From Stramenopiles sp. TOSAG23-2 (Eukaryota), in assembly GCA_900128395.1 (NCBI GenBank), contig LT649261.1, positions 1-54,130 of the forward strand: a stretch of DNA of 54,130 nucleotides, read 5' to 3'. The notes under the pieces are model-generated. The model searched no databases and was not told the origin of the DNA. It saw nothing but the letters and a program-made list of their open reading frames with translations. Shown here piece after piece: positions 5,434-42,961 of the stretch. Positions within the stretch are counted from its first letter, which is position 1, and every line of letters begins with the position of its first letter. The translations under genes were made by a program, and so were the position numbers.

Positions 5434-7919
5434 ATGGCTAGAGAAAAAGTTACGCGACAGGGTAAGTTATCAACTTATATTGGGTTAATTTTGAACGCTG
5501 ATCTTATTATTCTTTCGCTGTTACTTTTTAGTGTATGTGCAGGGCATTTTTTTGTTTATTACGAGCGTACTGCGTACCTAAGAGTTTTCGGGCGGCCATA
5601 TGTATTCTTGCATCTTTTAGTATCAATATTTTCACTGTATCCCATCATAAAATATCACGTGCTCATGTTAATGCATATACTGTGTATTGAACGTAAAGAA
5701 AAAAATAAAAAGGATACCTCCAAAGATGACGATGTTATCGTCTTAGAACTACAAGACATGTCAAACAGTAGCGCCAGCCGTGAAAGTAGCCAAAGCAAAG
5801 AAATGAACCAGGAAAAAAGTAGTAGTATTGATAAAAATTGTCCACTATTACTTTACATGTATAAACTTTTCTTGGAATTTTATGTTGTGGATGGTAAATA
5901 TTACATTCATCAACTATATCTCTGTAAATTTTATGAGCTGGCGTATCAATTTTATAGTATCGTATATATTTATACGTGTTCATTCCCAACAGTGTTCAAT
6001 GTTATATTTGCTGGAATTTTAGGTACTGACTCATTGATTAATGGTATTTTAACTTGGCGATTGGTTGACACTACAGTTGCGCGAGATAGACTGTTAATTT
6101 GGCATATAATTGCCGATTTTGCGTATTTATGCATTCCCAATTTTTTATTGTATTACGGTTACCATATACCGTTGAGTGTTGAAACCAGTATAATTTTGAC
6201 AGTCCCAACCACTCTTTTTATATTGCTTCGTATCCTGGAAGTGATGAACAATTTTATAAGAATCGATTTGATACGAATAAAGCAATTAAAGAAGGATTGT
6301 GCCACCGAGTCAAACTCCGATGCCAACGAACGTTCTATGAAACGACGCTTTTCTATCTTTCGAGCCTCATTAGCAGAGCCATTGCTTCTAGTTGAAAAGA
6401 AGCAGTTTCATCATTTCAATGGTATATTCCGTAGTGTTGCTATTGAGATCTTATTGATGGTTTCTGGGTTTATGTTTTCAGTTGCCTTAGCTCAAAGTTT
6501 ACAAGTAATTGGAAATAAAACATTTTTCGAGGAATGCATTAAGATATACGATACCGAAGAGATGAATGTAAACTTGTATAAACATTGTGTATCAGAAGCA
6601 GCATTTTGTCAAAACTTATTTCAACCAGCATGCGATTGTTTGCACGTAAGCTTATCAGACTATAACCACACGAGGCTACCGAGTAATAGCAAGTACATGA
6701 AAAGCTTAAGGATTTTAAAAGTTACTGATGGCAGGTTGCACAGATTGCCAGAATCATTTGGATTTAATCACCAGTTACTTGTGAAGTTGCATATTGAAAA
6801 TAATTTTATTGAAAAACTCCCGGAAAGTATTTGCTCTTTGAAGAATTTATTGTACCTCTATTTGCCACAAAACTTGTTGGAAGAGTTGCCCCATTGTATT
6901 GGTGAATTGGAAAGCATGGTTCGTTTAGTGGCATTTCGAAACAACATCAAATTGTTACCAGAATCAATTGGTCGTTTAGAAAATAATTTATTGCATATTC
7001 TGATATGTAAGTGAATATTATTATCCGCAGTTACGTTTTCTTCCTTATACAGTTTCCTAACACACACATATTTATAATCATCTACCATTTCCCGTTATGC
7101 CAATACACAGCACAAAATCGTATAACTCGATTGCCGGAAAGCATTGGCAATTTAAAATTTCTTATTGATTTTGATGCCAGCCAAAATTTATTAGAAGAGT
7201 TGCCAGAAACAATGGGGAAGTTGAATTCTTTGTTGAATTTAATACTGTTTCAGAATAAATTGAAGAAACTTTCAAATTCATCATTGCGAGAAAAATACTT
7301 AAATTTAAGAAAGCTTATTGTTCATACAAATAAGTTAAGTTCTGTTCATGGCTTAGAGAATATAGAGTCCCTGGAAACATTGGATTTATCTTTTAATGAT
7401 TTGCATGATTCTAAGTTGTATGTATTATTTATTTATTTGCGTAATATGAAACATTTATCTGTTCGAAACAATGGCTTGGAAGAGTTGCCAAATGATATAA
7501 ATGCAATGTCAAATTTGCAGTTTATTGATGCGCGGAACAACAAACTAGAGAAATTACCAACGAAAATCGGTCATCTGCGTAATTTGAAAGACTTGTATGT
7601 TGCTGGAAATAGTATTTGCTCTAATATGAACAACGAAGAAATAATGATTGCTTACGATTTACCAAATGGTATTAATAAGCTGGCTTTATGTACAAAGCAG
7701 TGTGCCACTACGTGTTTAAACAAACATCTGAGTGATAATATTTGTGATGACCCAAGTATTGTTAGTTTTTTTCGCGCAGTCGATCCTGCATTTAGATATG
7801 CGTTCACAAGTAGTCTTAGCATTAGGCCAAATAAAACGGAGCATCGACAATACAATTATGCCAGTGGCCGCGGTTGTAACGTAGCTACATGTCAATATGA
7901 CAAAGGAGATTGTTTGTAA
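5434..7919 (+). CDS. Multi-pass TM protein with C-terminal LRR domain and LNR (Lin12/Notch)-like Cys motif; intron 7007-7110, probable in-frame intron 5462-5542
   Basis: ORFs 5356-7014 and 7011-7919 join through GTAAGT(7007)...CCTAAC...CAG(7110) to give LHILIS-QNRITRLP, a continuous LRR. C-terminus reads CATTC...ICDD...GCNVATCQYDKGDC. The start codon is uncertain. Confidence 0.8.
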
Positions 7920-33840: not shown

Positions 33841-34279
33841 CGTACACATACCAGGTATTGTATGGTTCAAAAAAAAAAAGTGTTCCACAGTATTATATTC
33901 ACCTGCTATTGCCACCATATACAAACCGTTTTTTGATATTTCCACTTGATGTACACATTTTTTTGGTTATGCTTAGAGTATATAAAAATAGCGCTGAAAT
34001 CTGCCTATCAGGAAGAACCCGCCCTGAAAAATCAAAAAATCCAAAAAAAATTCATTTTAATTTGTTGTTGAAGGAAATACACAAATCGTATATATATCAA
34101 GATTACATTTTTTGTTCTTTGTTCATATATATACGTGATGATAACTACTACCCCCCCTCAATAAAACGAAAAAGAAAACAGTATAATAACTAAGAAAAAG
34201 AAGAAAATAATAATATGAAAAAAAAAAATTTTGTAATTTTGTAATTTTTATATAAATCATCAAAATTAGATATAATAAA

Positions 34280-35098
34280 ATGATGACGTTATTTTTTAAA
34301 TATTTAGTAATAATAATAATAACTTCAAGTATAATAGCATGTAACGCTGTTGGAGTGAAAGAGGAAATATGTGCAGGACAGAAAGATGTGATGCGTAAAT
34401 TAAACCGTGATGGAAAACTATGTAATGGTGCGGAAAATTGGAATACATGGTTTCATTTGAATTTCCCTGGTTGTGGAGAAAACAATAAGTGGACAGAACA
34501 TACGTTTAATAATGATGGTGTGAAACTGGTGAAAAAAGAACATATTGCTAGTGATAAATTTATACGTGACCTGAGTGGGGTATATGAAAAGGAACAGAAA
34601 ACGGAGATGAAAGAAATGTACTTTCTTAATTTAAACGTAGGAAAAGCGCCTTTGGTAGAAAAAGGGAAACAGTTACAAGTGGTTCAGAGACGTCGACTTG
34701 ATGATAGTTCACGTGGAAGGGAGTTATTAAGTGAATGGGATGGAACGGCAAATTCGGGGTCATTTAATCTTGTTAGGAATGTGACGAAGACGAGTGGTAC
34801 GATTAATGTGAATGGTGAATTAGAAATTGTTGGAATTGTTGGGGATGATGGAGTTAAGCCAGCAATTGATGGTGGGAATACGCCGGGGTGTACGAGTAGT
34901 TGTCCTGGGCATAGGGTGTTTTTTTTAAATACTGCGAATGATGAATTACGATTAACAAATATAACAATTCAGAATGGATATACGGTACGTTTTCTAATTT
35001 TGTTTTCTCATTTCTGATAATAAAAATTGTGTTGAACAATTGTTGTCTTTTCTTTTTCGTATTTTATCAAATTCAATATGGACTAACATTTATTTTTA

Positions 35099-35129
<31 letters not shown>

Positions 35130-35263
35130 ATATGATCATTTAATATATATATATTGTATCTTGAATATGATGGTATAGAATGTAAGTAAACGTTGAACTG
35201 ATGGTTGTGTCTTCTTTCTATTTTGTATTTTATATCAAATGCAATATGGACTAACATTTAATT

Positions 35264-35295
<32 letters not shown>

Positions 35296-38200
35296 GATCA
35301 TTTAATTAATATATATTGTATCTTGAATATGATGGTATAGTATGTAAGTAAACGTTGAACTGATGGTTGTGTCTTCTTTCTATTTCGTATTTTATCAAAT
35401 GCAATATGGACTAACATTTATTTTTATTATTATTATTATTATTATTATTGTTATATATGATCATTTAATAATATATATTGTATCTTGAATATGATGGTAT
35501 AGCGTGTAAGTAAACGTTGAACTGATGATTGTGTCTTCTTTCTATTTCGTATTTTATCAAATGCAATATGGACTAACATTTATTATTATTATTATTATTG
35601 TTATATATGATCATTTAATATATATACTGTATCTTGAATATGATGGTATAGGATGTAAGTAAACGTTGAACTGATGGTTGTGTCTTCTTTCTATTTCGTA
35701 TTTTATCAAATGCAATATGGACTAACATTTATTTAAATCGTTATAAATCAAGGGTGGGGGATTTTGGATAAATCGTGGAACTGCCACATTGACAAGTTGT
35801 ACTGTGTCTAGTAACACCGCTGTAAGTAAATTGAAATATATGTGTGTCTTTTTTATATCAAATGCAATATGGACTAACATTTATTTTTATTTTTTTTATT
35901 ATTATTATTATTATATATGATCATTTAATAATATATATTGTATCTTGTATATGATGGTATAGGATGTAAGTAAACGTTGAACTGATGGTTGTGGCTTCTT
36001 TCTATTTCGTATTTTATATCAAATGCAATATGGACTAACATTTATTTTTTTTTTTATTATTATTATTATTATATATGATCATTTAATATATATATATTGT
36101 ATCTTGAATATGATGGTATAGAATGTAAGTACATGTTGAACTGATGGTTGTGTCTTCTTTCTATTTCGTATTTTATATCAAATGCAATATGGACTAACAT
36201 TTATTTTTATTATTATTATTATTATTATATATGATCATTTAATATATATATATCGTATCTTGTATATGATGGTATAGAATGTAAGTAAACATTGAACTGA
36301 TGGTTGTGTCTTCTTTCTATTTCGTATTTTATATCAAATGCAATATGGACTAACATTTAATTTTATTTTTTTTATTATTATTATTATTATATATGATGAT
36401 TTAATATATATATTGTATCTTGTATATGAATGGTATAGGATGTAAGTAAACGTTGAACTGATGGTTGTGTCTTCTTTCTATTTCGTATTTTATATCAAAA
36501 GCAATATGGACTAACATTTATTTTTATTATTATTATTATTATTATATATGATCATTTAATAATATATTGTATCTTGTATATGATGGTATAGCATGTAAGT
36601 AAACGTTGAACTGATGGTTGTGTCTTCTTTCTATTTCGTATTTTATCAAATGCAATATGGACTAACATTTATTATTATTATTATTTATATTATATATGAT
36701 CATTTAATATATATACTGTATCTTGAATATGATGGTATAGGATGTAAGTAAACGTTGAACTGATGGTTGTGTCTTCTTTCTATTTCGTATTTTATATCAA
36801 ATGCAATATGGACTAACATTTATTATTATTATTATTATTGTTATATATGATCATTTAATATATATACTGTATCTTGAATATGATGGTATAGGATGTAAGT
36901 AAACGTTGAACTGATGGTTGTGTCTTCTTTCTATTTCGTATTTTATATCAAATGCAATATGGACTAACATTTATTTTCATTATTATTATTATTATTATTG
37001 TTATATATGATCATTTAATTTAATAATATATTGTATCTTGAATATGATGGTATAGCATGTAAGTAAACGTTGAACTGATGGTTGTGTCTTCTTTCTATTT
37101 CGTATTTTATATCAAATGCAATATGGACTAACATTTATTATTATTATTATTATTGTTATATATGATCATTTAATATATATATATCGTATCTTGTATATGA
37201 TGGTATAGAATGTAAGTAAACATTGAACTGATGGTTGTGTCTTCTTTCTATTTCGTATTTTATATCAAATGCAATATGGACTAACATTTATTATTATTAT
37301 TATTGTTGTTATTATTGTTATATATGATCATTTAATTTAATAATATATTGTATCTTGTATATGATGGTATAGCATGTAAGTAAACGTTGAACTGATGGTT
37401 GTGTCTTCTTTCTATTTCGTATTTTATATCAAATGCAATATGGACTAACATTTATTATTATTATTATTATTGTTATATATGATCATTTAATATATATATA
37501 TCGTATCTTGTATATGATGGTATAGAATGTAAGTAAACATTGAACTGATGGTTGTGTCTTCTTTCTATTTCGTATTTTATATCAAATGCAATATGGACTA
37601 ACATTTATTATTATTATTATTATTGTTATTATTGTTATATATGATCATTTAATATATATATATCGTATCTTGTATATGATGGTATAGAATGTAAGTAAAC
37701 ATTGAACTGATGGTTGTGTCTTCTTTCTATTTCGTATTTTATATCAAATGCAATATGGACTAACATTTATTATTATTATTATTATTGTTATATATGATCA
37801 TTTAATATATATATATCGTATCTTGTATATGATGGTATAGAATGTAAGTAAACATTGAACTGATGGTTGTGTCTTCTTTCTATTTCGTATTTTATATCAA
37901 ATGCAATATGGACTAACATTTATTATTATTATTATTATTGTTATTATTATATATGATCATTTAATAATATATATTGTATCTTGTATATGATGGTATAGGA
38001 TGTAAGTAAACGTTGAACTGATGGTTGTGTCTTCTTTCTATTTCGTATTTTATATCAAATGCAATATGGACTAACATTTATTTTTTTTATTATTATTATT
38101 ATTATTATATATGATCATTTAATATATATATATTGTATCTTGAATATGATGGTATAGTATGTAAGTAAACGTTGAACTGATGGTTGTGTCTTCTTTCTAT

Positions 38201-41200
38201 TTCGTATTTTATATCAAATGCAATATGGACTAACATTTATTTTCATTATTATTATTATTATTATATATGATCATTTAATAATATATTGTATCTTGTATAT
38301 GATGGTATAGTATGTAAGTAAACGTTGAACTGATGGTTGTGTCTTCTTTCTATTTCGTATTTTATATCAAATGCAATATGGACTAACATTTATTATTATT
38401 ATTATTATTGTTATATATGATCATTTAATATATATATATCGTATCTTGTATATGATGGTATAGTATGTAAGTAAACGTTGAACTGATGGTTGTGTCTTCT
38501 TTCTATTTCGTATTTTATTAACTAACCTTTATGTATTTTTAACACATCTTGTGAAAGGGTGGAGGAATATGGGTTAATATCGCTTCCGCAAAATTGTTCT
38601 TAAGCAATTGTATCTTTCAAGGTAATACTGTCAAGAACAAAGGAGGTGCCCTCTATATTAATATTAATGGGTGGTCTACACAACGGAAAGAATTATCTAT
38701 AATCAATACATCATTCATTGATGCTTCTGATACTATCGTTTTTTCAACAGCACCATCTGTACCATGTATATCTCCCTCCGAATGTATACCAGGAGATGGT
38801 GGAGCTATATCGAATTACAATTCCTCTGAATGTAGTAAAATTGCATGTGGGAAATGTCCAAAAGGAATGCGTCGTACATCAACCGAAGGCGAATGTTTAA
38901 CATGTGTTGTTGGGAGATATACTGATCAAATTGCACAAACGGCATGCAAGAATTGTGAAAGTGGCAAGTACAATTCAAAAAAAGGGATGACAAGTTGCAC
39001 GGAACCTTGTGAAGAAGGACATTATTGCCCAGGTGGTACGGGTAAAATATTGTGTCCTCGTGGATCATACCAAAACGAAGAAAGCATGCCAAAATGTAAA
39101 GAGTGCCAAGGTGGAACATACCAAGAAATAACAATAGAAACAGGGCAAGCCGATGAATCTTCTTGCAAAGATTGCCCGGTTGGGACATTTTTACGGTCTT
39201 CCACCAAATTTAGTAATCATGAAGGTATAAGTAATTGCAAAGAATGTGAAAAAGGTCGATATAATCAAAATAGAGGATCTGCTGCGTGCACACCCTGTTC
39301 AAATGGAAAATATTTCTACCCAAACATTGCACGGCAAGAAAGTGAGCTTCGCGCTTGTAAACAGTGTGCAAATAATACAATTACTTCCGACAGTGGACTT
39401 CTGGAATGCTATCCATGTACATTGGGCAAAACGGCAAACGACGCTCACACTAGTTGTGATACGGACCCGGATTTTTATGGCACTGCAAATTTGCCAGCTG
39501 CACAACAAGTATTCGAAGGAACGTCATACCAATACCCATTAACACTATCGAAATCACCGGAGGAAGAAAATGTTCAAATTATTATTTCAAGTTCTAATAA
39601 TACAAATTGTATATTGTCACATTCAATTGTTACATTTACAAAAAATAATTTTACTTCTGCCGTTGACATTGCAGTAACTGTAGCAAACAATTATATTGAT
39701 GAAGGAGTAAATAAAATTGTTTTTGTTTGCACATTAGACCACACGATTAAAAGCACAGATGCGAAATATGTAAATGGTGATGTGATCTCGTTTACAATCT
39801 CTGCCGTAAATAATGATATTGCCGATGTAAAATTACAATTAACAAAACCTGGCGGTGGTTTTGAATACAAATTAAAAGTAATTGGACCATTATCAGTTAC
39901 CGAAGGGACAAATACATCTTACGGAATAGTACTGGATACGAAACCAAGAAATAATGTGTTTATAAAATCTATTATTAAAGTTCCACAATCAGACGATCAT
40001 AAATTGGAAATGACATTAGACCCGGCGTTGATAACATTTACAACCTCAAATTGGAACATACCTCGTCTTGTAACGATGCACGCAAGCAGTGATTTGATTG
40101 ACAATCAGATCGACCAACGTTTTGAAGTGATGTATTATATTGAAACGGCAGATGAAGTATTTCTACGTAAAGCTGTAAACAATACTGTGATTGCGGAAAT
40201 ACGTGACGACGATAGCGCAGGCATAGTTATGTCAAGCAATAACCTGGATTTAATTGAATTAAAAGAAGGTGGTGAAAGTAAACAATTCAAAATTAAAGGT
40301 CTTTCCTCCGAACCGTTAGCAAATGTTAAAGTATTGATATCAGCAAAATCGAATGCAGAAAGCACAATAACAGATTTGATTGATATTGAACCAAAGTCAT
40401 TTACAATTGATAAATCCAATTGGAGAAACGTAAATGAGTTAATAACAGTAAAAGCGCTGGAAGGTAATTACCTTTCTTTAGGCACATCTTTTTCTCTTGA
40501 TATATCTGTGGAAAGTGGAGATCCTAAATATAATACTTTCGGTACAATGGCAAAACAGCTTTTATCGGTTGAACGTATCAATTCAATAGATACGGCGTTG
40601 CCAAAGATTGTTCAAGTTCAATTGGCACATGTCGACCGTTCATATTTACAAAGCTTGGTTTTAATTGAGTGGGAGTTGCCACCAAATATAAATGCGTCAA
40701 TAGCAAATATTAGTATTATGGCAGAAAGCGAGGACGGAAAGCAAACGGAAAGTATATTTAAACCTGGTGCAACAAAAGGGGTGTTACGAGAATTGTCACC
40801 ACCATTTGTTGATCAAGTTTATAAGTTTGATATAAAATTCAAATATAAATCTGGTATTTATAGTGATGGAAATCTATGGTCAAAGCTATGGAAAACAACT
40901 AAAGATTGTAGGGACGACGAATTTTATTTAGATGCCACTGGTAACAATATGATGAAATGGAAATGCAAATCTTGTCCAGATGGTGCATCGTGCAAAGGTG
41001 AAAAAAGCGAGAAAAATCTTTATGCCAAATTTGGTTACTGGGGCTACAATAAAACACAATATTACCCGTGCCTTCGTTCACAAGCATGTTTTGGAGGGAA
41101 AAATCAAGCATTTAAAGACCGTTTTAAAGATGTGAATGATGATAAAGCAATTGCATTTTGTGCAGACGGGTATCGTAACGGAAGCCGTTTATGTGCATCG

Positions 41201-42586
41201 TGTGATGTAAACTATGCTCGTGGTTCTAGTATAGGCGAGTGCAAAGTTTGTCAAACAGAAACAAATGTAGTAGTATTTATTCTTGGTGTTATAGTTGCAA
41301 TAGGTGGAACTTTCCTACTCGTTAAAATTACAGTATTTAAAGAACGTACTGTTAATTTTAGTGACGGTGTAAAGAAAATTGCACTTAGTTATTTGCAAAC
41401 GGTTTCGTTGGCACGTAATATAAATGTTCCGTGGAATCATACGTTTAGACAGTTATTCGTTGCGCAAGATGTTGTAACACGTGTATCAGAAGCCTTTTTT
41501 TCCTTGGATTGTGTGTTAAGCACTGCAACGTCGTGGGATGTTTTTGTACTTCGATATGTATGTGTACTTTTAATGCCTTTTCTTATTGTGCCGTTGACAA
41601 TATTTTGTATGAAACGTATTGGTGGCAATAAAGAACAAATTGTTGCTACATTAGTTTTGTTATGGTATCTAATGTTTCCAACATTTATACAATCGTTTGC
41701 AAAATTGATAAGTTGCACGGAAGGTATTGGTACAGAACAGTTACGTTATTTAAAAGTTGATCCAGAGATAGTTTGTTGGAAAGAAACACATTTAATAATG
41801 TTTTGCCTTGCTGGTCTTGTTTCATTAACATATATTATTGGGTTTCCAGTGCTTGGTTTGTACGTATTGCATAAAAGTGACCGTGAACTACCGGAAAATC
41901 GTTTAAAATATGGAATGTTATACGATGGCTATAACAACCAATATTATTATTGGGAGATAACAATGATATTGCGTAAAATTTGTATTATTGTTATTGGAAC
42001 ATTTGTAGCAGATAGTCAACAAATACTTTGCGTGTTGTTTGTATTGGCATCATTGATATTTTTAACAGCATACTACGAACCATTCTTGTCAAACAATTTG
42101 TTGCATTTGGAACTTGGTTCGTTATCATTGGCTTTCTTTACGTTCTGGGTAGGGGGTTTGTTGCAGAATGATCCAACCTGTGCTGATGACAGTGGTTTTT
42201 GGTGTGAAGGTGCAGCATATTTTGTTGCTTTTGTCAATGTTATTGGTATTTTTTACCTTGCATATGTCTTTGGAACTGCGAAATGGAAAGAAAAAGCAGA
42301 TGTGGTGATGGCTGTTGTGAAAACAAAGTGTCCTTGTTGTTATGTCAAACGTAATGATCCAAATAAGCACCGGGGCAATAGAAACGGTAGAAATACATGG
42401 TATGATGGTGATGCGACAGATAGAGGTACTGTTGAAGTTGCTATGGTGAAGACAAAGTCAAAGAAGGGAAATGGTAATGGACGGAACAGAAAAACGGAAA
42501 CTATAAATCCATTGAATGGAATTGATTTAACATCTATAGAGCATGTCGTAGAATTGCCTGATGTAGTTGGAAGCAAAGAATTGTAA
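34280..42586 (+). CDS. ~1600-1621-aa multi-pass surface receptor: signal peptide, RRRL/RELL pro-region, PMP/pectin-lyase-like beta-helix repeats, GCC2_GCC3/ephrin-receptor-like Cys repeats, Calx-beta/Ig-like domains, ~7-8 TM. Exons 34280-34984, 4 microexons, 35753-35821, 17 microexons, 38558-42586
   Basis: Exon 1 is 705 nt (phase 0) ending ...ITIQNGYT|GTACGT. The 69-nt exon encodes GGGFWINRGTATLTSCTVSSNTA. The last exon starts GGGIWVNIASAK, in frame with ORF 38594 (FQGNTVKNKGGALYIN). All junctions are AG/GT in phase 0. Confidence 0.88.
34985..35752 (+). other. Microexon array A: 5 introns enclosing four 3-nt exons AAT(35179-81), TAT(35341-43), CGT(35503-05), GAT(35652-54) = N,Y,R,D
   Basis: Each triplet lies in the context TGATGGTATAG|NNN|GTAAGT, and each intron carries GGACTAAC. 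Confidence 0.85.
35822..38557 (+). other. Microexon array B: 18 introns enclosing seventeen 3-nt exons starting at 35963,36122,36278,36439,36592,36741,36892,37056,37209,37373,37526,37688,37841,37999,38158,38311,38464 = D,N,N,D,H,D,D,H,N,H,N,N,N,D,Y,Y,Y
   Basis: 149-164-bp tandem units of GTAAGT...GGACTAAC-(ATT)n-...TGGTATAG plus a NAT codon. Confidence 0.85.
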
Positions 42587-42961
42587 GGAACGGGGGGAAA
42601 CGGAACTTGATACAATCACAGGGAGTAGAAACGAGAAAATAGTTGCGAAAAATAAATTAAATCGACAAGAAAATGCACTTAGAAAAATAAAAGATAATCT
42701 AAATCGACTAAAACGCTTGTCAAAGTTGGCCAATGATCGAAAGAATATTATGTTTAGTATTTTAGTCGTGTTTTTTAGTTTTTCGTGCAACTAATTTCTA
42801 GAAGAATTTTTTGATTGACGCTTGCTTTGATATCTGATTTAAGGTATTTTATGATTTGCATTTTTACATTTTCTGTGGATTTGCTTTTTGCGTCGGATTT
42901 TAAAACAAATGTGCATTATATCGACTATGGTTGCTATCCAGCTAGCTATGTAGTAATGGTT

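Follow-up and report, generated by a model that had tools for sequence, protein, structure and literature searches.

In arthropod Dscam, tandemly duplicated alternative exons of more than 100 nucleotides (nt) lie in the ectodomain of a surface receptor and are used in a mutually exclusive manner through RNA pairing. At recursive splice sites, or ratchet points, a 3' splice site is followed by a regenerated GTAAGT donor with zero nucleotides between AG and GT, and the intron is removed stepwise. The intragenic coding minisatellites of yeast adhesins provide a third point of comparison, in which repeat instability leads to heritable variation in the length of a surface protein. Here we describe a locus in contig LT649261.1 of Stramenopiles sp. 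TOSAG23-2 (54,130 nt; hereafter the window, meaning the whole stretch that was analysed). Within a gene for a probable membrane protein, positions 34985-38557 of the + strand parse into two tandem arrays of short, intron-like units that enclose single in-frame codons. The reading we favour, with a probability of roughly 0.55, is that each unit is spliced on its own, that at least some of the codons are kept, and that the arrays grew by unequal crossing-over.

The locus differs from each of these systems. In comparison to Dscam, no exclusivity rule is evident, and the units are near-identical, so that unit-specific selector sequences are not apparent. Recursive splice sites have nothing between AG and GT, whereas exactly 3 nt separate them here at 21 of 21 sites. 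About 98% of the repeated unit is intron, unlike an adhesin minisatellite, and a recombination substrate of 155 base pairs (bp) would add one residue. Introners are near-identical introns found across unrelated genes; here both unit motifs (22 and 21 occurrences, against 0 expected from 100 shuffles) are confined to the two arrays within 54 kb.

Isolated ultra-short exons (1-3 nt) share with this locus the presence of tiny in-frame exons between canonical introns. The available text of PMC8831610 describes 1-nt exons in the plant genes APC11 and VPS55, and adjacent exons of 5 and 12 nt, validated by reverse transcription-polymerase chain reaction (RT-PCR); exons of 3 bp in Drosophila hth and human MAP4K5 appear in excerpts of PMC7392893 and PMC8632122. 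Such exons are single or paired, old and conserved, and are flanked by unrelated introns, whereas the present ones stand in tandem (4 + 17) and appear to derive from duplication of an intron together with its codon. Schistosome micro-exon genes, as described in PMC4350168, contain very small symmetrical exons, encode secreted or surface proteins and vary a few residues by alternative splicing; according to that source, micro-exons constitute the bulk of their coding sequence, and the family is confined to platyhelminths. By that description the two differ, since the one-codon exons here account for 63 nt of about 4.9 kb, all are 3 nt long, and the introns around them are copies of one another. 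SNHG14, a non-coding host gene whose introns give rise to the small nucleolar RNAs SNORD115/116, has dozens of near-identical introns in tandem, with short exons between them (PMC11608373). The units here lie within a coding frame and their folds are no more stable than those of shuffled sequences. A small RNA within the introns was considered and rejected, since a search of 34900-38700 against Rfam gave no match up to E = 1. Full-text literature searches, covering few subscription journals, did not turn up any account of 3-nt exons in tandem arrays.

Anatomy of the two arrays

A pattern scan of the window for AG-NNN-GT[AG]AGT returned 21 matches, all on the + strand between 35177 and 38466, with 0 matches in the remainder of the 54,130 bases and 0 on the - strand. 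The region between exons 1 and 3 divides into 23 intron-like intervals of 91-194 nt each. The features of the gene are as follows.

34280-34984, + strand: exon 1, 235 codons with a hydrophobic N-terminus, ending in ...LRLTNITIQNGYT (...ITIQNGYT); 26 homologues
34985-35752, + strand: array A, 5 introns around 4 one-codon exons
34985-35178, 35182-35340, 35344-35502, 35506-35651 and 35655-35752, + strand: introns of array A
35179-35181 AAT, 35341-35343 TAT, 35503-35505 CGT and 35652-35654 GAT, + strand: one-codon exons of array A
35753-35821, + strand: exon 2, 23 codons, GGGFWINRGTATLTSCTVSSNTA, one probable beta-helix coil; resembles GGGFSIAAGSAILTSCTVSSNV of P0072
35822-38557, + strand: array B, 18 introns around 17 one-codon exons, the last intron being 38467-38557
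35963-5 GAT, 36122-4 AAT, 36278-80 AAT, 36439-41 GAT, 36592-4 CAT and 36741-3 GAT, + strand: array B exons 1-6
36892-4 GAT, 37056-8 CAT, 37209-11 AAT, 37373-5 CAT, 37526-8 AAT and 37688-90 AAT, + strand: array B exons 7-12
37841-3 AAT, 37999-38001 GAT, 38158-60 TAT, 38311-3 TAT and 38464-6 TAT, + strand: array B exons 13-17
38558-42586, + strand: exon 3, 1342 codons and a stop, starting GGGIWVN, in frame with the open reading frame (ORF) at 38594

The first-pass annotation had proposed 23 introns with donor, branch point and acceptor signals, enclosing 21 single codons in groups of 4 and 17, and both the signals and the triplets proved to be exactly as claimed. The donor is GTAAGT in 22 of the 23 intervals and GTACGT in the first; CTAAC is present in all 23, and in all 23 the proposed acceptor is the first AG downstream of it. 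Each of the 21 one-codon exons reads TAG-NNN-GTAAGT, with canonical 3' and 5' splice sites and a branch motif upstream. The triplets of array A translate as N, Y, R and D, and those of array B as DNNDHDDHNHNNNDYYY. The arrays lie between ORFs 34280-35017 and 38594-42586, with all junctions in phase 0 and 0 of 21 triplets being a stop codon; the translations bear out that the frame is kept from one ORF to the other. At exon 2, the acceptor AG ends at 35752 and the donor GT starts at 35822.

Tandem Repeats Finder reports the region as one tandem array at 35049-38518, with a period of 153, 21.9 copies and 88% matches. The repeated cassette of about 155 bp corresponds to one short intron (GTAAGT, ACTAAC, a TTA-rich tract and TAG) and one codon, which is NAT in every unit except for a single CGT. 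The G+C content of the arrays is 21.8%, against 36% in the flanking exons. Internal units measure 146-161 nt, with the branch motif 75-92 nt before TAG and no AG in between; the distance from branch site to AG is 28 nt in the last intron of array A and 32 nt in that of array B. The outermost introns of each array are hybrids: in the first, unique sequence at the 5' side is followed by repeat-type sequence at the 3' side, and in the last the order is the opposite. Unequal crossing-over between two similar introns around a one-codon exon would leave such a footprint. Also considered was a hairpin that could reduce the interval from branch to TAG; it was predicted in 3 of 3 units folded and was rejected at z +0.97 to +1.9, being no more stable than shuffles. 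Directly after the branch motif every unit carries a (TTA)n microsatellite of variable length (for example at 35090-35129, 35264-35291, 35418-35454, 37605-37638 and 37920-37950), which accounts for most of the differences in unit length and may serve as the U-rich tract of each intron.

The 21 units were aligned around the triplet, giving 123 ungapped columns outside the TTA microsatellite. Fourteen of these vary, and 13 of the 14 have two alleles. Four alleles are found in a single column only, the first base of the triplet (A7 G6 T4 C4, 1.96 bits). If the 13 extra alleles are distributed over the other 122 columns, the Poisson estimate that a particular column has at least 3 of them is 1.9e-4; correction for 123 columns raises this to 0.023. 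Each of the codons TAT, CAT, GAT and AAT is found with 3 different flank haplotypes, and the three terminal TAT units carry three different flanks. No mutational or splicing-level cause for the hypervariable first base was found, and it would be most simply explained by selection on what the base encodes. Units of arrays A and B share haplotypes, and the two arrays have therefore exchanged sequence.

Elsewhere in the window such introns are sparse. A signal scan identified 10 further intron candidates (8 distinct acceptors), of 65-257 nt, in the approximately 50 kb outside the arrays, so that 23 of about 30 candidate introns fall within 3.6 kb. One of the further candidates, at 7007-7110 (104 nt), shows the same signals (GTAAGT...CTAAC...CAG) and is verified by frame continuity: its removal fuses two LRR ORFs into one frame of 820 codons that contains a single stop.

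The host gene and the probable beta-helix linkers

The coding total of 705 + 69 + 4026 + 63 nt comprises the three large exons and the one-codon exons. Exon 3 consists of a further probable beta-helix coil, four ephrin-receptor-like Cys-rich repeats, a long middle region and C-terminal hydrophobic segments, at least 6 of which lie within its last 450 residues. The Cys-rich repeats correspond to Pfam PF07699 in four stretches (39.7-39.8 bits versus a cut-off of 23.1). Matches to the beta-helix families of Pfam fell below their cut-offs, with Chlam_PMP scoring 19.4 bits on the start of exon 3 (cut-off 20.6) and Beta_helix 20.6 bits on P0072 (cut-off 25.9). By eye, the hydrophobic N-terminal stretch of exon 1 appears to be a signal peptide. 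P0080, a EukProt gene model of 1066 residues from a relative, matches exon 1 (query 148-233) and is 40% identical to exon 3 over 587 residues, the first coil of exon 3 aligning to the GGGFY coils of P0080; P0002 also matches both exons. Because P0080 matches both, exons 1 and 3 belong to one gene. The product is plausibly a multi-pass membrane protein with a large ectodomain. The earlier description of a surface-receptor gene thus stands as regards a single gene for a membrane protein with a large ectodomain; the receptor role is plausible, and is read from the domains.

Both arrays interrupt an equivalent turn linker between consecutive coils of a probable PMP-like, right-handed beta-helix in the ectodomain; the linker runs from a conserved Asn (..C-T-V-S-S-N.., ..I-T-I-Q-N..) to the GGG at the beginning of the following coil. 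Linkers of the family were read by eye from this Asn to GG[GA] in 15 instances (8 in P0002, 3 in P0072, 3 in P0080 and 1 in exon 3), since an automatic regular-expression measurement mis-anchored several coils. All 15 have 4-10 residues, most often 5, and they are rich in N, D, R, Y, H, S, G and T (for example RNQY, DYT, RDF, VSRNS and NQAHGYT). Splicing without any triplet would join GGATATACG to GGTGGGGGA at the position of array A (site A) and AACACCGCT to GGTGGAGGA at that of array B (site B), leaving linkers of 3 and 2 residues, respectively, shorter than any of the 15. This favours real one-codon exons. With all triplets kept, site A would have 7 residues, within the family range, and the composition N-Y-R-D is typical (compare RNQY, DYT and RDF).

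P0072 lies on a relative's 14,086-nt ENA contig, with about 83% identity, and reads through both linker sites without introns. What it shows is that relatives encode inserts of 2 to 7 residues at both linker sites, and nothing beyond this. An AlphaFold2 (AF2) model of P0072, meant to place the linkers, had a predicted local distance difference test score (pLDDT) of 49 and was not used. On the same contig, the downstream ORF, P0063, contains a stretch, ..KKDIIAQ.., that resembles a frame-shifted Cys-rich repeat; the apparent change of frame could reflect a pseudogene, a retro-copy or insertion-deletion errors.

The intron site at A appears to be old in the family, because 30 of 34 homologue ORFs run into V-R or V-S within two residues after L[TS]N..I[QKR]NG and then stop. 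V-R and V-S are encoded by GTACGT and GTAAGT. Among the remaining four, one continues V-C, which fits GTATGT, one stops after 8 residues, and two (P0072 and P0080) read into the next coil. The tail of the ORF in the window, VRFLILFSHF-stop, is the exact start of intron 1 and is common to many relatives. The residue before site A is polymorphic (A, T, V, K or S), even where the sequences otherwise agree to 90% or more. The exon 1 cluster has 20 members, each on a contig of 784-1693 nt, and such short contigs are what a repeat just downstream would produce, without being proof of one.

Two further features accompany exon 1. The loop GGNTPGC-x(2-12)-CPGH is highly variable in P0064 and P0090-P0109, relatives of 34280-34984 that are at least 90% alike, with variants such as TSSC, TNNC, TDNC, INNNC, AYHC and GVSSNCPFSSYG; judging from these ORFs, this ectodomain probably has here its second hot spot of variation at the population level. 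An imperfect, A-rich tandem repeat of period 26 with 2.9 copies (34160-34228) immediately precedes the start codon at 34280.

Proposed processing and origin of the arrays

In the scenario we favour, an old phase-0 intron site in the linker would have come to hold two similar introns around a one-codon exon, and unequal crossing-over between these introns would have multiplied a segment of half intron, codon and half intron. A short-intron machinery that pairs each donor with the nearest branch site and uses the first AG after the branch would excise each unit separately and leave the codon in the mRNA. The product would have an N/Y/R/D linker and a D/N/H/Y-rich loop, the length of the loop would change heritably with that of the array, and selection acting on the protein would maintain the diversity of the first codon base. 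As a secondary effect, some stochastic skipping is probable where neighbours are equally strong. The hypervariable first base, the linker lengths of the family and the old intron site at A are indirect evidence in favour of coding triplets. The complete set of signals in every unit also speaks for the scenario, and the RT-PCR-validated plant exons show that ultra-short exons can be spliced.

Several observations weigh against this scenario. The 75-92 nt from branch to AG in the repeat units exceed both the 28 and 32 nt of the terminal introns and the 13-58 nt of the 10 other candidates, and the internal acceptors may for this reason be weak. The lack of AG in the tail of the unit departs little from expectation (P 0.04) and is weak evidence, since AG is missing from the remainder of the unit too. 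Codon variation partly follows the unit haplotypes: 4 of 4 GTCTA units carry AAT, and block duplication has therefore copied codons, so that the variation is not all due to independent mutation. The second base of the triplet differs in a single unit and the third is invariant, an odd pattern under free diversifying selection; donor positions -2 and -1 may constrain these two bases. At site B, keeping all triplets would produce a linker of 19 residues, nearly double the longest of the family (10). The near-identical 155-bp units may be an assembly estimate in their number and order. At the protein level, three protein searches and a representative search did not find a spliced form spanning either junction. 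The first 160 residues of exon 3 had 1 match among shorter proteins, a genomic ORF of a relative, and a search with P0072 gave 9 matches, none spanning a junction of this gene.

Transcript data were available as marine metatranscriptome contigs from 4 runs in 4 studies, which were compared with positions 38440-42600 only. Twenty RNA contigs match exon 3, in all four metatranscriptomes, 5 of them at 99% or more and 15 at 95-99%, and they cover 39045-39194, 39918-40083 and 40725-42526. Also against the favoured scenario, none of the 20 reaches 38558, and the 4 runs gave no contig on 38440-38995 and no joints. The absence of RNA contigs from 38440-38995 says nothing for or against splicing. Those on exon 3 are compatible with expression, given that DNA can be present in RNA libraries. 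Six RNA runs carry about one tenth of the sampled words and the two best DNA runs 0.84, all of these runs being marine.

It is possible, as the first-pass annotation proposed, albeit with clearly less probability than separate excision of each unit, that near-identical introns compete and that each transcript keeps a different subset of the 21 codons, so that one cell or clone would display loops of many lengths and sequences. Any subset of triplets keeps the frame, the internal units are equal in signal strength with none favoured, and partial inclusion would fit the fold better than a 19-residue linker does in a family with 4-10. Precedent comes from Saccharomyces cerevisiae, where 100 natural introns combinations in synthetic pairs included 37 that yielded several spliced isoforms (PMC8496845). 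However, no RNA contig covers the junctions, and in organisms with short introns the pairing of nearest neighbours would retain every codon by default. The runs of N and Y mean that many subsets would yield identical peptides, and the four different residues of array A look like a fixed linker. Heritable variation through instability of the arrays explains the data at least as well as combinatorial splicing. A codon-level loop diversifier acting on two levels, with crossing-over changing loop length heritably by single residues and stochastic or regulated skipping supplying populations of isoforms in each cell, is a rather doubtful extension; such isoforms would differ in two neighbouring beta-helix loops, for prey, virus or self recognition.

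Removal of each array as a whole, nested or in one step between the first donor and the last acceptor, would make the arrays intronic minisatellites and leave no triplet in the mRNA. The branch-to-AG distances are in keeping with this, the terminal introns being typical of the candidates in the window where the internal ones are not. In addition, the units are recent, near-identical copies, so that their intact signals need no selection, and a change of the first base cannot turn NAT into a stop, so that the absence of stops weighs little. This explanation nonetheless appears unlikely: it leaves the four-allele first base, alone among the 123 columns, without an explanation, it predicts linkers shorter than all 15 of the family, and it requires 2.7 kb to be spliced out as one intron despite 17 internal donors and branch sites that are all perfect, against 65-257 nt in the other candidates. 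More improbable still is an artefact or a dead gene, with the array mis-assembled (collapsed, expanded or chimeric) or the copy a pseudogene. Short reads are poorly suited to ordering 155-bp units that match at about 88%, the two best DNA runs do not carry all of the sampled words, the relatives of exon 1 are on short contigs in 20 of 20 cases, and P0063 seems to change frame when read by eye. Yet each of the three exons has an open frame and is conserved, all 4 runs include RNA-library contigs that match exon 3, the internal variation of the repeat is structured (haplotypes and microsatellite lengths) and not noisy, and a real repeat at this locus would itself yield short contigs in other assemblies.

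If the triplets are kept, as in the favoured scenario, the arrays would be the longest known run of minimal exons. An intron-definition spliceosome would then handle an acceptor and a donor 3 nt apart many times in a row, intron duplication would be a route to protein growth by one residue at a time, and a surface loop would be varied without long coding repeats. If the loop diversifier were also real, it would constitute a variable-loop system based on splicing, and this in a unicellular eukaryote. Genes of this kind defeat gene predictors, and splice-aware aligners would overlook the codons; other protist genomes may for this reason conceal similar arrays. A public model of the gene illustrates the failure of prediction: P0096 (EukProt g8858.t1) is identical to exon 1 over residues 38-235, continues into intron 1 (VRFLIL) and finishes with unrelated sequence. 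EukProt thus carries a split and mis-annotated version of the gene.

Genomic setting and database scans

The window has a G+C content of 31.7% and contains ordinary nuclear genes in long, mostly uninterrupted ORFs. These encode prenyltransferase, EF-hand, MORN, LRR, WW, B-box and dynein-regulatory-complex-like (NYD-SP28) proteins, a content from which the source is taken to be a gene-dense, intron-poor flagellated protist.

Scans of viral and prokaryote-genome collections gave single chance matches only and no relative of exon 1. In metagenomes, a three-donor pattern was matched at no fewer than 97 loci, mainly (GTAA)n-type microsatellites. The sole locus with a spacing of about 160 bp among the matches listed, L090, was rejected as low-complexity sequence of the TAGGTAG type. 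Long (GTAA)n-type microsatellites are abundant in a few related metagenome sample series of the Joint Genome Institute (JGI; L001-L097), where they swamp searches for AG-NNN-GTAAGT.

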